Assembly (NCBI GenBank): GCA_048938295.1
Contig: JBHLMI010000004.1
Location: 91,082 to 123,081 of the forward strand
Origin: Promethearchaeota archaeon
GTDB lineage: Archaea > Asgardarchaeota > Hermodarchaeia > Hermodarchaeales > Hermodarchaeaceae
DNA: 32,000 nucleotides
Direction of reading: 5' to 3'
Shown here: in pieces, positions 13,869 through 32,000 of the stretch
Layout: each line of letters begins with the position of its first letter
How positions within the stretch are numbered: position 1 is the stretch's first letter
Made by a program: the position numbers and the translations under genes
Notes under the pieces: generated by a model
Seen by the model: the letters and a program-made list of their open reading frames with translations, nothing else
Databases searched by the model: none
What the model was told of the DNA's origin: nothing

Positions 13869-15368
13869 TTATAATTCCAACAAGCTTGGTATTTCGATAA
13901 GTAAGTGTCGAGTTTGGTTCCCCGTATTACGGTCCCGAATGGTAACCGTTTCGTCTTCAAGACTCTGCGGGTCAATTGTAACTGCCTTTGGAATTCCGAT
14001 TTCATCAGCTCGTGCGTACCGGCGACCAATTCGTCCACTCGCATCATAGAGAACATCAAGACCTTGACCTCTACATACTGAGTATAATGTTGTCGCCTTT
14101 TCTTCCAGTTCAGGACGGTTCAAAAGGGGTAGGATAACTGCATGATAGGGAGCAAGTTGGGGAGGTAGCTGGAACCAGGTCCATCCTCGCGTTTTATCTT
14201 TGGGTCGATAGGTGTGCTCCAGAATCGCATAGATTAATCGATCAATACCAAATGAAGGTTCAAGGACGTGAGGAATTACTTTCGCCCCTTCAAGGTCATA
14301 ACTTAGGTCTTTTTGGCTTCCCACCATATGGGATTTCAAATCATGATCCCGTCGATATGCATTCCCGATGACTTCCTTCCAGCCAAAACTCAAATGGACC
14401 TCTAAATCGAAGTTCCCCCCACTGTAATGAGGAGTCTCCTCAGGCCGCATATGTCGGAACCGAATTGCTTTATCCGGGATGCCTAATAACTTGAAAAATT
14501 CTACTTCATCGCCAAGGATACAAGCCATCCACTGATTCGGAACAAACTTCTTTTCGAAGGCTTCCTGGACGCTGATCTGAATCGAAGCAAAATCAGTGGT
14601 TGATTGTTCTGCAGCTTTTTCTTGGTTTTCCCGAGTTACGAAATTTATCGGAACCTGGGCTAATTCATCAAAAAGGGGGCACGCATCCAATTGGTTTGGA
14701 TCAACGAAATATTCGATTTCCATTTGCCCGAATTCTCGAACCCGCACTATACTCTGACGTGGTGAAATTTCATTGCGGTAGGAGTGCCCGATTTGAGCCA
14801 CCCCAAAGGGGAGTTTTGCCCTAAGAGCTGTTTGGATACGTTTGAATCCCAAGAAAATATTCTGTGCGGTTTCGGGACGAAGAAAAGCCTCACGATGTTC
14901 ACCACCAACACTCGTTCCAAACATGAGTCCAAAACGTTTCACTTCGCCTAAGTGATCTCCACAGATGGGACAACGTAGCTTCTTTTCCCGCACAATTGCC
15001 TCTAATTCCTCATTTGGCTTGCCCTCAGCAGGAATTTTCAATCGCTCTTCTATCAACTGGTCAACACGTGTAATGTGACCTTTGGAGCATTCAGCAGAGG
15101 GATCAGTGAAATGATCCAAGTGGCCTGAAGCTTTGAAAACTGGGCTAGGTAGAAGCGTATTCCCACTTACCTCGAAAACGTTATCTCTATTTTCAACGAA
15201 CCGAGTACGCCAGAGACGAATCAGATGATTACGGATTCTAGTCCCAATTGGTCCGAAATCATAGAATCCGGCAAGCCCACCATAGATTTCAGCAGTGGGG
15301 TAAATGATACCACGCCGTAGGGATACGGTCATTACTTCTTCGAGTAGCGAGTTCGTCATTGAGAACAC
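13869..15368 (-). CDS. glyS: Glycine--tRNA ligase (class II, alpha2 type)
   Basis: EIYGGLAGFYDFGP, LRPETAQ, YRNEISPRQ..RVREF.QMEIE, EPSFGIDR, IGRRYARADEIG. Start could be ATG 15359. Confidence 0.96.
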   Translation of the reverse strand: MFSMTNSLLEEVMTVSLRRGIIYPTAEIYGGLAGFYDFGPIGTRIRNHLIRLWRTRFVENRDNVFEVSGNTLLPSPVFKASGHLDHFTDPSAECSKGHITRVDQLIEERLKIPAEGKPNEELEAIVREKKLRCPICGDHLGEVKRFGLMFGTSVGGEHREAFLRPETAQNIFLGFKRIQTALRAKLPFGVAQIGHSYRNEISPRQSIVRVREFGQMEIEYFVDPNQLDACPLFDELAQVPINFVTRENQEKAAEQSTTDFASIQISVQEAFEKKFVPNQWMACILGDEVEFFKLLGIPDKAIRFRHMRPEETPHYSGGNFDLEVHLSFGWKEVIGNAYRRDHDLKSHMVGSQKDLSYDLEGAKVIPHVLEPSFGIDRLIYAILEHTYRPKDKTRGWTWFQLPPQLAPYHAVILPLLNRPELEEKATTLYSVCRGQGLDVLYDASGRIGRRYARADEIGIPKAVTIDPQSLEDETVTIRDRNTGNQTRHLLIEIPSLLEL

Positions 15369-15535: not shown

Positions 15536-16249
15536 ATGTGGGAAAGGTGTAATCACGAAATGTCACAGGAAGAATTTGGACAAATGTACTGGAACGGCGT
15601 CCGTGACGCCTTGCGCATGACCCAAACGTTCCTATTCTGGAAGGAAAAGAACCCCAACGAGAACCGCACAATTGAAACTTTCATTAGTGAAGCCCTCGAA
15701 GCCGTTCGCCAAAAATGCGCCCCTTGCTTGAAAGAAATCCTTGGTGTGACTTTTGGCGAAGATGAAGCAACAGTCGAAGAAATGCTGCCTGGCCTGCAAG
15801 AGATCGAAACCCCAGCTCCGGAACCTGAACTAGCACCCACCTTCGAACCCGCACCCGAGTTTGAACCAACCCCGGAACCGATTCCAGAACCAATTCCCGA
15901 ACTTGAACCAGAGCCTGAAGCTATACCACCACCTGTACCTCCAGTTCCTGAACCTGCTGCAGCCCCTGAAACCATTCCTGAACTAACGCCTATCGAAGCA
16001 CCATCAGAGCCTGAAGTCTTTCTAGCCGAAGAACCAGCCCCTGAACCGGAACCAACCTTTGATTTCGGCGAACCTGAACCAGCACCCACCTTCGAACCAG
16101 CCCCTGAATTTGAATCCGTACCCGAACCTATTGCTCCACCACCTGCTGAACCAGTAGCTCCTGCTCCAGCACCCGCCGAACCAGCTGCCGAAGAAGAACC
16201 AGCAGAGGGCGAAGAGGAAGAACCCAAACGGCGAACCTTCTTCTTCTAG
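15536..16249 (+). CDS. Hypothetical protein: small helical N-terminal domain with CxxC, long Pro/Glu-rich disordered tail, C-terminal RRTFFF
   Basis: Open frame with coding-like codon pattern; internal repeat with only synonymous differences. Start may be MSQEE. Confidence 0.75.
   Translation: MWERCNHEMSQEEFGQMYWNGVRDALRMTQTFLFWKEKNPNENRTIETFISEALEAVRQKCAPCLKEILGVTFGEDEATVEEMLPGLQEIETPAPEPELAPTFEPAPEFEPTPEPIPEPIPELEPEPEAIPPPVPPVPEPAAAPETIPELTPIEAPSEPEVFLAEEPAPEPEPTFDFGEPEPAPTFEPAPEFESVPEPIAPPPAEPVAPAPAPAEPAAEEEPAEGEEEEPKRRTFFF
15832..16114 (+). repeat. Two copies of a 34-bp repeat encoding APTFEPAPEFE
   Basis: 15832-15865 versus 16081-16114; four mismatches, all at synonymous third positions. 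Confidence 0.85.
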
Positions 16250-16310
16250 CTCCCCACGCTCTATTTACCAGGCGAAGTTCACAACGTTAATGCACATTAG
16301 GTTGACTGAA

Positions 16311-17411
16311 GTGAACTACCATCGACTGAAGACGATGGCTTCTATGCAACTGCATAGTCAAGGGCCGGTTCACAGGCGGCCCCACACAATGGCATATAGC
16401 CAAGGTGTCTCTCGACTTTCCGAGCAATATTAATGGCACCATTAAGGTCCGCATTGTACTCCCCGCATTCTGGACATCGAAACCGTGCCTGAGTGGGACG
16501 CACTCCACGTCGACCACACACGTGACAGGTGACGCTGGTATAGGCCTCGTTCACCAAGACCACTGGGATACCCCGCATCATCGCTTTGTAGATGATCATG
16601 CGTGTCAGCCGATGATAGGGCATAGTGCCGATAATTCTCTGCAGCCGTTTGCCCTTCGTCGTAGTTGTCCGCCGGATACCGGTAAGGTCACCCATCGCAA
16701 TCCATGCCATGGTCAGTTCAGCCAGCTCCACGATTTCCTTGCTTATCCGGTGGAGGACGGCGTCGACTCGCCGCTTCTCCCTGTCACGAAGGCGCTTGAC
16801 AACCCGCGTCAGGCCACGTTCTTGCAACCGCCGGCGTAGCCATGCGTGATGCCGTCTAATCCTCCGGACCTCTCGTCCGAGAAACCTTGGTCGTGTTATA
16901 CAGCTGTTTTGCAGCAGCACCGTTGCTGCAATGATACGCTCGCCAAGATCCACGCCAAGCACAGATTTACCTCTGCGAAGAGGCGGGGCATTAAACGTGA
17001 ACACCAAGTTCACGTAGAACTTCCCCTGTTTACGAAGCAGTTTGCTCTCGCTCAGTTCAGCGTCTTTTGGAAACGCTCTATGAGGGAGTATGGGGATACG
17101 GAGTCCTCCCCGTTGCCCATATACGCGGATTCGTAGGAACCAGAAGGTCTTTGCTTTGTGGAGGTCGATGAGGTCCTGCCGGAGAGAGAGGGGATACTCT
17201 TTCCCCGGTTTGGGTTGCTTGTAGTATCGTGCAGCCTGTTGACGGTTGGCGGAATAGAGCTTCACCCCTGTGTCTCCTTGAAGGAATCGTTGGAGGTTGT
17301 CATATTCTGCGTCCAAGAGAGCTCTTTTTCTCTTTGTGAGTCTGACCACGCCGCATTTGACGGCCAGCCGCATCTGCATACATTTGAGGTTACAACTTTT
17401 GCTAAAAACTC
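16311..17411 (-). mobile_element. Solo-tnpB IS200/IS605 (IS1341-like) element
   Basis: Right end on minus strand: GAAG-CCATCG-TCTTCAGT-CGATGG-TAGTTCAC ending at 16311. Left junction tentatively after TTGAT (17416-17412). Visibly GC-richer than the flanks. Confidence 0.75.
16342..17379 (-). CDS. tnpB: Compact TnpB RNA-guided endonuclease with rearranged RuvC-II
   Basis: RuvC-I VLGVDLG; RuvC-II position reads IAMGDL; VNEAYTS; zinc finger CHVC...CPEC; RuvC-III NADLNGAINI. Confidence 0.92.
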   Translation of the reverse strand: MQMRLAVKCGVVRLTKRKRALLDAEYDNLQRFLQGDTGVKLYSANRQQAARYYKQPKPGKEYPLSLRQDLIDLHKAKTFWFLRIRVYGQRGGLRIPILPHRAFPKDAELSESKLLRKQGKFYVNLVFTFNAPPLRRGKSVLGVDLGERIIAATVLLQNSCITRPRFLGREVRRIRRHHAWLRRRLQERGLTRVVKRLRDREKRRVDAVLHRISKEIVELAELTMAWIAMGDLTGIRRTTTTKGKRLQRIIGTMPYHRLTRMIIYKAMMRGIPVVLVNEAYTSVTCHVCGRRGVRPTQARFRCPECGEYNADLNGAINIARKVERHLGYMPLCGAACEPALDYAVA

Positions 17412-17412
17412 A

Positions 17413-17790
17413 TCAAAATAATTTTGAGAGCTGTTTTGCTGCTTGTTCCACCAACAGCAAAATCGCGCCTAAATGCTGCCGCTTAAACACCGCTACCAAC
17501 ACCATATCCTCATTCACGCCATGCAAGATGAGACTTCCGCCCTCCGTATCCAGGATAATTCGTGCGGGTGTCACGGTGAATAGCTTATCCGACAAATCCA
17601 CCGACACATTTAGCAATGTCGCCAGACTCGCGGAGAGGAAGGTTTCATCAACGTGGACCCGAATCCGAGCTGTCACAGGCAATCCAGTCTTCATTAGCAG
17701 CACAACGCCCACAAGCCCCCCAGCGCGCTCGTCAAACTCCTCTAGCACCTGCTCAACATCTTCCATCAGACGGTACGCTTCAGCAGTCAT
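17413..17790 (-). CDS. Roadblock/LC7 (MglB-like) protein
   Basis: Helix, then VGVVLLMKTGLPV, LSASLATLL helix, IILDTEGGSLILHGV, VLVAVF, and a LGAILLLVEQAAKQL terminal helix. Confidence 0.88.
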   Translation of the reverse strand: MTAEAYRLMEDVEQVLEEFDERAGGLVGVVLLMKTGLPVTARIRVHVDETFLSASLATLLNVSVDLSDKLFTVTPARIILDTEGGSLILHGVNEDMVLVAVFKRQHLGAILLLVEQAAKQLSKLF

Positions 17791-17886
17791 GCAAGCAACC
17801 CCTGAACACCCTAACCACCCAATCCTTGAAAAGACCTGTGGTTAGGAGTCTAAGTTAACTCCAAAAAACTACAGAGCTACCAACAA

Positions 17887-17917
17887 AGAAAAATGGTGTG
17901 TCGGAAAGACCCGACAC
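17887..17917 (-). terminator. Hairpin plus T-tract after thioredoxin
   Basis: 7-bp stem GTGTCGG/CCGACAC (17898-17917), followed on the minus strand by TTTTTCTTT. Confidence 0.6.
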
Positions 17918-17933
17918 CACGTAGAATCAACAC

Positions 17934-18251
17934 TTAAAGAATTGCAGCAAGTTCCTTTTCAATCTCTTCCCGCGGCCACACACCAACATGCGTGGTGACC
18001 GGCTCCCCATTTTGAAATAAGATCAGCGTTGGAATTGCACGGATCTGATATTTCATCGATGTTTCTGGCGCCTGATCTGCATCAATCTTGGCAATCCGCA
18101 CCCGACCCTTATCCAACCCCTTCTCCAAACTCTCCAAAATTGGTGCCTGCATCTTACATGGGCCACACCAAACGGTGTAGATGTCTAGTATCACGATTTC
18201 GTGTTCGTTAAGAAATGCGTCGATGGTTGTGTCGGTTAATTGTTCAACCAT
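17934..18251 (-). CDS. trxA: Thioredoxin
   Basis: WCGPC active site, KIDAD, IRAIPTLILFQNG; 105 aa. Confidence 0.95.
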   Translation of the reverse strand: MVEQLTDTTIDAFLNEHEIVILDIYTVWCGPCKMQAPILESLEKGLDKGRVRIAKIDADQAPETSMKYQIRAIPTLILFQNGEPVTTHVGVWPREEIEKELAAIL

Positions 18252-19603: not shown

Positions 19604-20908
19604 CCGTTCCCCGAATCTAACAAGAATTTAGGAAATTCTAAGTTCGGTTCCTGCTTCATCGACGGGCACTGCCCGAAGGCTGCAACCTCCCACCTCTAGA
19701 CAGGCGTTTTGCGTCTCCGTGGAACTCACGGCGACAGCTACTAGATTATAACTTGCATTCAAATCTCTATCGATTTCCAATCCACAGTATTCGCATTTGA
19801 AGATCCGAGTTGAAAGCGAAAGTTCGCTTTTTGTAGTTCCGCATTTAGAACATCTTTTTGTTGATGGAAAAAATCTAGAAACAATAAAGATATCCGAGCC
19901 ATACCATTCTGACTTGTATTCCAATTGTTGCCGAATTTTGTTAAAGCATGCTTCAGTTACTGATTTCGCTATTGAATGACATTCCTGCATTCTTCTGACA
20001 GAAAGATTTTCAATTGCTATCACTGACTTGGTTTTCGTCAAATACGTGGTAGCTTTATGAATAACATCTCCTCTGATATTAGCTATACGCGAATGCAACT
20101 CTTGTAACTGCAATACTATTTTTCTTCTATTACTACTCCCTTTCCGTTTTCTTTCTAATGACCGTTGGGTACGTTTCAACTTACGTTCATATCTTGAAAG
20201 TACTTTTGGATTCTGAATAATTGTTCCGTCAGATACCGTAGCAAGGTTTCTAACACCAAGATCCACACCTACAATGCTACCTTTATTCTTCGACACTTTG
20301 ATTTCCTCTTTAACCTGGAGCGATACAAACCAACGTCCGGCTTTTTCTGACACAGTTGCAGAAAGAACATGGACTCTATCATCCATATGAGGTAAGTAAT
20401 CTCGTTCCTTCAATCTAAGTAGTCCTAAGCGAGGTAATTGAATTGAACTGTGAAAAACACGGATGACTCCAGTTAATCTAAATGAGCCCCTCCCTCTTTT
20501 TCTTGATTTGAATTTTGGGAAACCAGGGTTTTCTTTTTTCTTAATTCGGCGAAAAAAATGACGAAAAGCATAATCGAGATTTCTTAAGGCTTCCTGAGGA
20601 GCACACTTTGAAACTTCATACATCCAAGGAAATTCAGTCTTTTTAAGTTGGTTTAACTCGCGATGCAAGTCCATTGCACTTGGCATTTTCCCAATTCGTT
20701 CGTATTCCTCTATCTTCCGTTGAAGGCCCCAATTGAAAGCAAAGCGGGCACAACCTACGTGTTTAATGCAAAGACACTTTTGGATGTTGTTTAATTCTAG
20801 TTCAGTTTTGTAGGCTCGAAAAATTGTCTTTCTTCCAGATTTGCCTAATTCAGATCCAGCCATACATTACAAAACTATAAGAAATTAGTATTTAGACTAA
20901 GAGGCACC
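19604..20908 (-). mobile_element. Non-autonomous IS607-like solo-tnpB element; ends tentative
   Basis: Minus-strand 3' end ...TTCGGGGAACGG at 19604, an IS607-like terminus as recalled. Imperfect repeats CTAATTTCTTATAG (left) and CTAAATTCTTGTTAG (right). AT-rich; no room for tnpA. Confidence 0.55.
19628..20863 (-). CDS. tnpB: TnpB RNA-guided endonuclease, canonical D-E-D RuvC
   Basis: N-terminal RAYKTEL...GCARFAFNWGL; VGVDLG; IAIENL; CSKC...CEYC; DRDLNASYNL. Confidence 0.94.
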   Translation of the reverse strand: MAGSELGKSGRKTIFRAYKTELELNNIQKCLCIKHVGCARFAFNWGLQRKIEEYERIGKMPSAMDLHRELNQLKKTEFPWMYEVSKCAPQEALRNLDYAFRHFFRRIKKKENPGFPKFKSRKRGRGSFRLTGVIRVFHSSIQLPRLGLLRLKERDYLPHMDDRVHVLSATVSEKAGRWFVSLQVKEEIKVSKNKGSIVGVDLGVRNLATVSDGTIIQNPKVLSRYERKLKRTQRSLERKRKGSSNRRKIVLQLQELHSRIANIRGDVIHKATTYLTKTKSVIAIENLSVRRMQECHSIAKSVTEACFNKIRQQLEYKSEWYGSDIFIVSRFFPSTKRCSKCGTTKSELSLSTRIFKCEYCGLEIDRDLNASYNLVAVAVSSTETQNACLEVGGCSLRAVPVDEAGTELRIS

Positions 20909-30827: not shown

Positions 30828-32000
30828 TCAAATCGTTACCGAATATGGGTGTAACCCCACACCCTCTATCCTGTCCACCTTGAAGGCTTCCGGGACTGCT
30901 TTTCTACCAATATTGTATCCTGCATTCACATCCGCGTTGATGACAAGCCCTGTCGAGGACTGGAAAAGCCCTCGTTTTACTCGATGTCCCAAATACTTAG
31001 TTTGGTGATCAAGTGGTTCATTATCAAGGAAACTCACTCTAGAAGTATAACTTTCATCCACCAAACACACCTCAACACCCACCAATTTGGCCTTATACTG
31101 TATTTGTTGTAGAAGCTTCAGGAACGGTACATTCACAAAATTTTGGTTTGTGTATTTGCCTAAGCTGATATGTTGTTTCCACATTTTGTTATATCCAATC
31201 ACAATTCGTCCGAAATCATTCTCGATTGCATAATCAACAATTCGCCTTGAAACTTTATGAAAATAATCTGTAATCTTGTTCATTCGTTTCAAGAGTAACC
31301 GTTGTAGTCGTCTGGTTTGACCCATAAGACCTTGTTTATCCGCAATGGAACAAAGGCGTGCTCGCTCTTTGTTATAATATTGATTGATAGATTTTACAAC
31401 TCCGCCTTTAACTCGCCAGGGCAGAAGCCCTGCGTTGTTTACAACAGTTACGAGGTTGTAAAGACCAATATCAATACTGATGATGCGGTGTTTTTCTAAC
31501 ATTAGATTAACAGGCTTTACCTCATAGACAACCTCTAGGATGTAATGATTTCCCCGTGGCAATATCCGAACATGACGAAACCTCGCCAAAATCCGAGTTT
31601 TGATAGGGCTAAGCTGGGTTTTCCTTGGGAAGATCAGGCGGCCTGCTCTGGTACAGCACTGTTGGTTTGTGAAAATAATGATGCTCTCACCACTTTTTGC
31701 CTTATAACGAGGAATACCTGGTTTACCTCTGTATTTCTCCGGGTATTTCTCCCAGTCTTTAATGGCTTCAAAGAAAGATTTCCAGTTTTTATCAAGTAAT
31801 CTGAGAATCTGCTGAGCTGTCTGTGCTGGAAGGCGCCTGTATGCATCTGTTTTCTTCATAAGTGAATACAATTCTCTATATCGAATCCAGTACCTCTCGC
31901 TGATGAATTTTTGACGAATGTGATAATTAGCTTGATTGTAGAGATTCTTTGCTAAATGACAGATTCTTGAAAAAGCAGCTGTCTTACTTAATTGGATTCT
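30828..32000 (-). CDS. tnpB: TnpB (Cys-less zinc-finger type, rearranged RuvC-II), 5' end outside the window
   Basis: Frame is open to base 32000 (RIQLSKTAAFSRICHLAKNLYNQANY...). ISIDIG, IVIGYN..WKQ, VDESYTS, INADVNAGYNI. Confidence 0.92.
   Translation of the reverse strand, partial: RIQLSKTAAFSRICHLAKNLYNQANYHIRQKFISERYWIRYRELYSLMKKTDAYRRLPAQTAQQILRLLDKNWKSFFEAIKDWEKYPEKYRGKPGIPRYKAKSGESIIIFTNQQCCTRAGRLIFPRKTQLSPIKTRILARFRHVRILPRGNHYILEVVYEVKPVNLMLEKHRIISIDIGLYNLVTVVNNAGLLPWRVKGGVVKSINQYYNKERARLCSIADKQGLMGQTRRLQRLLLKRMNKITDYFHKVSRRIVDYAIENDFGRIVIGYNKMWKQHISLGKYTNQNFVNVPFLKLLQQIQYKAKLVGVEVCLVDESYTSRVSFLDNEPLDHQTKYLGHRVKRGLFQSSTGLVINADVNAGYNIGRKAVPEAFKVDRIEGVGLHPYSVTI

Follow-up and report, generated by a model that had tools for sequence, protein, structure and literature searches.

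In the insertion sequence ISDra2, the nuclease TnpB is 408 amino acids long and its transposon-associated motif (TAM) is TTGAT. ISDra2 and IS608 insert 3' of a short T-rich motif (TTGAT or TTAC) without duplicating the target, carry similar subterminal hairpins at both ends, and have a TnpB guide that comes from the flank beside the right end, with the empty site as its expected target. Several clades of TnpB have a rearranged RuvC-II site, the largest being RIIr-5, in which the canonical Glu has become Gly and an alternative Glu lies on the next strand, and in the derived rearranged clades RuvC-III contains an NADxN motif (Altae-Tran et al. 2023, PMC10691335). Such proteins have also been named TnpB2, and they share with all Fanzors an alternative Glu about 45 residues away; among them, TvTnpB of Thermoplasma volcanium cleaves DNA at the TAM NTGAC without collateral activity, and the E467A mutant of the Fanzor ApmFz2 is inactive (Jiang et al. 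2023, PMC10530073). In Fanzor2's cryo-electron microscopy structure, the Glu is shifted by 50 residues within an Asp324/Glu467/Asp501 triad. Activity of a rearranged RuvC site has already been demonstrated for one archaeal TnpB and for Fanzors, and the Glu-to-Gly change with a downstream Glu is published and hence known, so that the central claim of the original prediction made for the DNA described here is not a new one.

The window analyzed here is a 32,000-nucleotide stretch of a genome whose source runs are sediment metagenomes. The host is a Hermodarchaeum-like Asgard archaeon, in line with the Asgard host first proposed: the same-genus genomes used for comparison are Hermodarchaeum metagenome-assembled genomes such as H03M_Hermod_104 and 'Candidatus Hermodarchaeum yapensis'. 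We are confident, if short of certain, that window positions 16311-17417 are a non-autonomous insertion sequence of the IS200/IS605 type carrying tnpB alone, a confidence that covers the whole reading, from gene family and boundaries to a truncated left end, a stuck copy, and an intact nuclease and guide unit. The insert spans 17417-16311, or 1107 bp, give or take a run of T. The original prediction described a compact TnpB with a Fanzor-type active site in an intact element bordered on the left by TTGAT; the protein, the right end, and the guide position have stood up, and the left end has not.

The tnpB coding sequence (16342..17379, minus strand, as are all parts of the element) is an uninterrupted open reading frame of 345 amino acids, or 343 if translation starts at a second ATG at 17373. 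It matches both the NCBIfam model NF040570 for guided TnpB (172.8 bits, E = 1.3e-50, cutoff 100) and the Pfam model PF07282, Cas12f1-like_TNB (75.3 bits, cutoff 26.3). Alignment to AsCas12f (PDB 8j3r) sets IQMEDL over IAMGDL, which puts Gly230 (16690-16692) at the canonical RuvC-II Glu position, and sets IDPQYTSQRC over VNEAYTSVTC, which puts Glu278 (16546-16548) 48 residues past it, the substitution and spacing that had been noted originally. These two residues, along with Asp144 of RuvC-I (16948-16950, placed by the same alignment) and Asp311 of RuvC-III (16447-16449), are invariant in 28 aligned members with identities down to 51%. The canonical Glu is therefore missing from the family as aligned, with an invariant Gly in its place and Glu278 as the replacement. 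NADLNGAIN at residues 309-317 gives the NADxN form of RuvC-III, and between Glu278 and RuvC-III lies a zinc finger (16465..16527) of the form CHxC (Cys285, His286, Cys288) ... CxxC (Cys302, Cys305), in which C285, H286, C288, and C302 are invariant among the 28 members and C305 nearly so. The zinc finger and the Asp residues of RuvC-I and RuvC-III align with Cas12f motifs, and Glu278 would complete a triad with Asp144 and Asp311 in a class that has already been described.

Judged by residue pattern, the window TnpB belongs with RIIr-5/TnpB2: it has Gly at RuvC-II, an alternative Glu within the 45 to 50 residues typical of that pattern, NADxN, and a zinc finger, together with IS200/IS605-type ends, an omegaRNA that overlaps the 3' end of the gene, and an archaeal host. 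It differs from that group in the truncated left end and the lack of a transposase partner. TvTnpB differs in its TAM, NTGAC versus an inferred (T)TTAT for the window element, and in the position of its Glu, residue 323 versus 278 of 345 here, which suggests a shorter N-terminal half in the window TnpB. At E <= 1e-5, the family has 1,124 database matches, almost all of them archaeal and most with a length of 340-375 amino acids. Because the named relatives are spread over many archaeal phyla, at least a dozen (two matches are labeled bacterial), this TnpB family is not an Asgard specialty.

An AlphaFold2 model built on the 28-member alignment (mean predicted local distance difference test score, or pLDDT, of 82) places Gly230 inside strand 225-231 and Glu278 directly after strand 273-277, modeled positions that match the relocation of the Glu from beta-4 to beta-5 described for RIIr-5. 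The modeled protein begins directly with the WED strand, that is, with no N-terminal extension. Foldseek searches with this model gave Cas12f and TnpB as the top matches, with template modeling scores to Cas12f structures of 0.65-0.69 normalized to the query, and ranked Fanzor2 35th. When the family profile was compared with the PDB, CnCas12f1 matched at E = 1e-26, AsCas12f at 4e-24, and Fanzor2 at 7.7e-10, and Fanzor1 was absent from the matches. Judged by these E-values and ranks, the nearest solved relatives are Cas12f proteins rather than Fanzors. "Fanzor-type" is thus apt for the active-site layout, which Fanzors and some TnpBs do share (PMC10691335, PMC10530073, and the Fanzor2 structure), and misleading for kinship.

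Cas12f proteins (CnCas12f1, 8hr5; AsCas12f, 8j3r/8dzj) have the same WED-REC-RuvC-zinc finger layout and a similarly small size, but they keep the canonical Glu (IQMEDL), use guides from CRISPR arrays, form dimers, and measure 420-500 amino acids, whereas the window TnpB is transposon-borne with the transposon flank as its guide. Fanzor2 (ApmFz2, PDB 9b0l) can still be aligned: phmmer pairs query residues 183-320 with chain residues 377-510, setting Asp311 on Asp501 and Glu278 no more than one residue from Glu467. In contrast to this archaeal protein, Fanzors come from eukaryotes and from giant viruses; they are larger and bear N-terminal extensions and nuclear localization signals. The window copy offers no specific support for an Asgard origin of Fanzors.

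The right end of the element (16311..16341) begins past the stop codon and reads (G)AAG, a hairpin (CCATCG, 16338-16333, with CGATGG, 16324-16319), and TAGTTCAC (16318-16311), placing the boundary at 16311/16310. Homology with five close copies from same-genus genomes and metagenomes (L012, L013, L025, L051, and L053; 75-86% DNA identity to the window copy for the three compared by BLAST) stops exactly at ...GTTCAC (16311), as does homology with a solo relic (L002). Forty-five distinct family loci carry GAAGC, the hairpin, and (G)TAGTTCAC with unrelated sequence directly beyond, and the family consensus is GAAGC, hairpin, GTAGTTCAC, all in agreement with the right end first read from this single copy. 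The solo relic is the sole further piece found by DNA search in the window's genome. It comprises 43 nucleotides on contig C66 (54407-54449; L002:1501-1543), 95% identical to the window copy, in which the final four codons of tnpB are followed by the hairpin and GTTCAC of the right end, and its homology ends exactly at ...GGTAGTTCAC. The relic is intergenic, with TTTAT 2 nucleotides upstream and the stop codon of a neighboring 495-amino-acid open reading frame inside its GTTCAC. A right-end-like terminus on contig C33 (about 14988-15040, minus strand), with the hairpin CCCCCGTCC/GGTCCGGG followed by TAGTTCAC, has no TnpB match nearby and may be a relic of a related subfamily.

The conserved right end is also the end of a structured RNA. 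Across the last 150 nucleotides of 20 loci, RNAalifold finds four main stem-loops with compensatory changes in 22 of 32 pairs. In a pair-count control, 96.9% of cells are paired, compared with 75% after shuffling of columns (0 of 500 shuffles are as high as the real alignment); sliding the partners by 1-3 columns lowers pairing to 33-50%. Of the four covarying stems, two fall within the 3' coding region of tnpB, another crosses the stop codon, and the remaining one is the hairpin that closes the right end. They end 7 nucleotides before the element boundary. RNAalifold finds no further covarying stem in the next 100 nucleotides upstream, and because extension adds none, we place the omegaRNA-like scaffold core at about 98 nucleotides, roughly 16311..16408. 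An Rfam scan of 15800-17900 at E <= 1 returned no family, and Rfam appears to lack a model for this omegaRNA. One stem loop, GTGAAC, about 63 nucleotides from the end, complements the terminal GTTCAC and is present in 30 of the 45 loci versus about 0.9 expected from composition. A pseudoknot between this loop and the 3' GTTCAC, neither of which varies in the aligned set, is plausible; an alternative RNAalifold solution, in which the region of the Glu278 codon forms 3 bp with the 3' end, comes without covariation.

The RNA may also account for part of the protein sequence. The C-terminal tail of TnpB (residues 329-345, window 16342-16395; ..GA.CEPALN..) is conserved and modeled as disordered (pLDDT < 50). 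Its coding sequence forms the GGGCCG/CGGCCC stem and the GTGAAC loop, the latter coding for the conserved C-E-P, and synonymous divergence over codons 281-345 lies below the whole-gene value in 6/6 pairwise comparisons. Since a disordered tail is encoded by an RNA stem and synonymous divergence is low there, its conservation may reflect RNA rather than protein.

Because the right-end boundary is fixed at 16311, the predicted guide template is the flank directly 3' of it (16295..16310; TTCAGTCAACCTAATG), in the position originally proposed, 16310-16295. The guide would have the predicted 16 nucleotides, and it may reach about 20, to 16291. The template is native host sequence, which seven same-genus genomes also carry at their empty sites, and nothing else in the window's genome matches it with fewer than 3 mismatches in 16 nucleotides. 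The sole near-match preceded by TTAT, on contig C22 at about 36880 (plus strand; TTAT then TTCAGTCATCCTTATT), has 3 mismatches in 16, one of them in the first 12, and the number of near-matches equals the chance expectation. The intergenic spacer at 16270-16310, which lies outside the element and follows the Roadblock gene in the same-genus genomes, keeps GTCAACCTAAT and, about 28 nucleotides on, GTGAAC in 5 of 7 same-genus genomes read; this GTGAAC is host sequence and a chance complement of the element's GTTCAC.

At the left end, comparison with empty sites changed the picture. A 3.1-kb query across the locus found the flanks directly joined in seven same-genus genomes (G001, G012, G009, G004, G003, G014, and G007), where ...TTAT (CTAT in G014) is followed by TTC(A/C)GTCAACCTAA or a close variant, in the general form ...AAATTAT/TTC(A/C)GTCAACC. 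The occupied site in the window reads AAATTAT, then TTTGAT-GAGTTTTT...GTTCAC, then TTCAGTCAACC. As none of the seven empty sites contains TTTGAT, this sequence arrived with the insert. Sibling copies (L012/L054, L013/L055, L028, L017, and L051) have 55 nucleotides before GAGTTTTT where the window copy has 6, and their left end runs TTAT / yAAAtyTA..AAGAAGAC, a hairpin (CCACCGA/TCGGTGG) that resembles the right-end hairpin, ATGAATTGG, and then TTyTGAT. Full-length siblings measure 1154-1156 bp versus 1107 bp for the window copy, which lacks the first 49 nucleotides of the left end. The deleted segment includes the hairpin, leaving the window copy with a right-end hairpin only and with the 3' part of its left end, TTTGAT plus GAGTTTTTAGC...ATGT (17380..17417).

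The same boundary recurs across the family. In full-length siblings, which sit at four distinct flanks, TTAT stands directly before the element. The left-end signature AGAAGAC-hairpin-GATGAA has 22 matches, 21 of them with TTTAT (20) or ATTAT (1) at 11-17 nucleotides upstream (mode, 12); the one left over is an additional match within locus L122, so every one of the 21 sampled loci carries the motif, with unrelated sequence upstream of it. The family consensus for the left end is TTTAT, about 12 nucleotides, AGAAGAC, hairpin, GATGAA, and a Hadarchaeota subfamily has TTAA/TTAT at the boundary. In general, the element inserts 3' of a conserved motif of 4-5 nucleotides without target-site duplication. 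From the insertion sites of siblings and family loci and from the empty sites, (T)TTAT is the target site that we infer and the likely TAM; in the window this is the host TTAT at 17418..17421, or ATTAT with the preceding A. Like ISDra2 and IS608, the family thus joins a short T-rich insertion motif to similar subterminal hairpins at both ends (in sibling copies) and a guide from the right flank, and it differs from them in its motif and its rearranged RuvC-II. The similar hairpins at both sibling ends, together with fixed-motif insertion without duplication, led us to reject an IS607-type (serine recombinase) mechanism. The empty site of sibling L013, sought in contig C4 of the window's genome, fell in a region 68-74% identical whose junction is not cleanly readable.

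These comparisons bear on the alternative that 16311-17411 is an element still intact and potentially mobile, with the TTGAT beside it serving as TAM in the manner of ISDra2. TTGAT does stand directly before GAGTTTTT, it is the ISDra2 TAM, and at 17416-17412 it does overlap the stop codon TGA (17415-17413) of the neighboring Roadblock gene, as the original prediction observed. A TTGAT junction is contradicted, however, by the seven empty sites, which show a different one, an outcome that the original prediction had itself named as refuting; by TT(T/A/C)TGAT, which is kept inside all sibling copies 49 nucleotides downstream of the real left boundary; and by the TTTAT or ATTAT of the 21 family loci, while the hairpin that siblings and all signature loci possess is missing here. 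We regard an intact element as very improbable. By sequence comparison, TTGAT is instead interior left-end sequence, exposed by deletion.

The insertion also altered its host gene, a Roadblock/LC7 gene (17413..17790, minus strand; Pfam Robl_LC7). Orthologues of this MglB-like Roadblock at empty sites end in ...LF[P/R/Q/K]ST*, a tail kept in 7/7, whereas the window protein ends in ...LF*. The last three codons have been displaced, and the stop codon now comes from element sequence. On the same strand, tnpB begins 32 nucleotides downstream.

No Y1 (HUH) TnpA accompanies the window element in cis or was found in trans, a further difference from ISDra2 and IS608: the Y1 transposase model PF01797 has no match in the window's genome, which is 91.6% complete and in which positive controls were detected. 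Among 14 other same-genus genomes, one, G013, has a Y1 transposase (contig C208). In G029, more distant TnpB relatives (segments 39-42% identical) adjoin Y1 genes. Because the left-end hairpin is gone and no Y1 transposase was found, the copy is most likely stuck, and we consider it probably immobile. At the occupied site, each of the two junctions is spanned by contigs from four sediment runs (one study; two of the runs may be the window's source samples). Over 15800-18000, these contigs contain no empty allele, no excision joint, and no full-length left end, the only loose ends being those of the C66 relic.

Immobility need not mean that the nuclease is lost, and one question is whether the copy is a decaying fossil: after mobility was lost, its gene and RNA would have ceased to function or to be expressed, with too short a time since then for the decay to show. 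This is the main rival to our reading. A truncated left end, the missing Y1 transposase, a single full copy in the genome beside a 43-nucleotide solo relic, and the lack of a guide target in the genome would all suit a fossil. Over 123 columns with at least 90% conservation among 114 relatives, the window TnpB deviates 8 times, compared with 7-8 times for siblings, and only T6A and G173R are private to it; the latter, at a position where 90% or more of the family have Gly, would also suit a fossil, as would a U-U at one hairpin pair. Against a fossil, the open reading frame is complete with every invariant residue, private deviations number two with a total no greater than in siblings, and the four RNA stems are otherwise intact, apart from a single pair. 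A TATA-like TTTTTA (17408-17403), centered about 26 nucleotides before the ATG and conserved in all copies, has also been kept, and it is plausibly an archaeal TATA box for a leaderless mRNA. Truly decayed same-genus copies show what the window copy does not: L013 has an internal TGA, and in L017 the ATG has changed to AAG. We therefore judge the fossil explanation unlikely. The nuclease gene, likely promoter, and guide RNA look intact at the sequence level, and within our reading, that the ribonucleoprotein is still catalytically competent seems to us somewhat more probable than its loss.

Decayed copies are common in the genus. L028 (G013:C204) and L017 (G010:C19) match the left end and the first ~66 codons only, and they sit at orthologous flanks that are 92.6% identical over 704 nucleotides.

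Several points weigh against reading the window element as a stuck copy with a working nuclease and guide. Insertion sites report the target choice of the transposase, and TnpB usually, not necessarily, reads the same motif. The deletion would have to start exactly at the TTAT/element junction, where only a 2-nucleotide AT microhomology is present. A Y1 transposase could sit in the part missing from the 91.6%-complete genome. The terminal hairpin of the window copy carries U-U at one apical pair, and a search of sequencing runs for the window stretch listed no RNA run. Finally, the ratio of nonsynonymous to synonymous substitutions between copies, 0.14-0.25, shows purifying selection on the copies as compared pairwise across genomes, and it is no proof of constraint on the window copy since its truncation. 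As for the deletion itself, we considered deletions at TAM junctions as a recurrent mechanism; the idea is not solid, given the 2 nucleotides that stand between TTTAT and the retained right end in the C66 relic.

A stuck but intact nuclease could also be one that the host or locus has retained, for example because it destroys incoming or recombinant empty alleles of the Roadblock-GTPase locus or because it serves a regulatory role after cotranscription with Roadblock. The deletion took only the transposase-binding part and spared the promoter-like box, the open reading frame, the RNA, and the guide; tnpB shares its strand with Roadblock and lies just past it; the four sediment runs show the site in the occupied state only; and many immobilized TnpBs are on record (PMC10691335). 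Yet most published exapted TnpBs have lost catalysis and keep the same position in different species (PMC10691335). Here the insertion at this site is absent from 14/14 other same-genus genomes, so that there is no sign of long-term keeping, and the guide matches nothing else in the genome. Retention of this kind has the slimmest chance of any explanation weighed here. A copy disarmed for transposition and kept as a fixed allele drive or guard, cutting transposon-free Roadblock-GTPase alleles that enter by recombination or gene transfer, is a long shot as well, with somewhat better prospects. If true, such a guard copy would represent the domestication of TnpB at an early stage, in an Asgard archaeon.

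We propose the following mechanism for a stuck copy with an intact nuclease. The element inserted 3' of TTAT in the last Roadblock codons, shortening the protein by three residues. The 3' end of tnpB and the 31-nucleotide right end would encode an omegaRNA scaffold of at least four stems, and transcripts running on into the flank would add the guide UUCAGUCAACCUAAUG... If it acts as ISDra2 and TvTnpB do, the complex of TnpB and omegaRNA would recognize (T)TTAT plus a guide match and cut the transposon-free allele, which would favor retention of the element. The left-end deletion removed the hairpin that a Y1 transposase would bind, so that, with no transposase found, the copy most likely can no longer excise. 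The nuclease would then be left without a substrate in its own genome, which contains no guide target.

Other TnpB genes accompany this one. Among nine paralogues in the window's genome, six have Gly with a downstream Glu and three are canonical. A second TnpB gene in the window (19631-20866, minus strand; 411 amino acids) has the canonical RuvC-II IAIENL and no alternative Glu. A third TnpB-like gene (30831-32000, minus strand), which continues past the window and contig end, is of the rearranged type (VIG..YN at RuvC-II and VDESYTS downstream) and lacks the zinc-finger cysteines; contig C35 of the same genome carries a similar paralogue.

Reading a TAM from a single copy can mislead, and here the apparent TAM was interior sequence exposed by a deletion. 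What the comparison of many copies provides is a parts list for a widespread archaeal family of ~345-amino-acid nucleases: consensus sequences for both ends, an omegaRNA core of about 98 nucleotides, and an inferred T-rich TAM. Because this list is complete and testable, the family is an easy candidate for miniature genome-editor screening.

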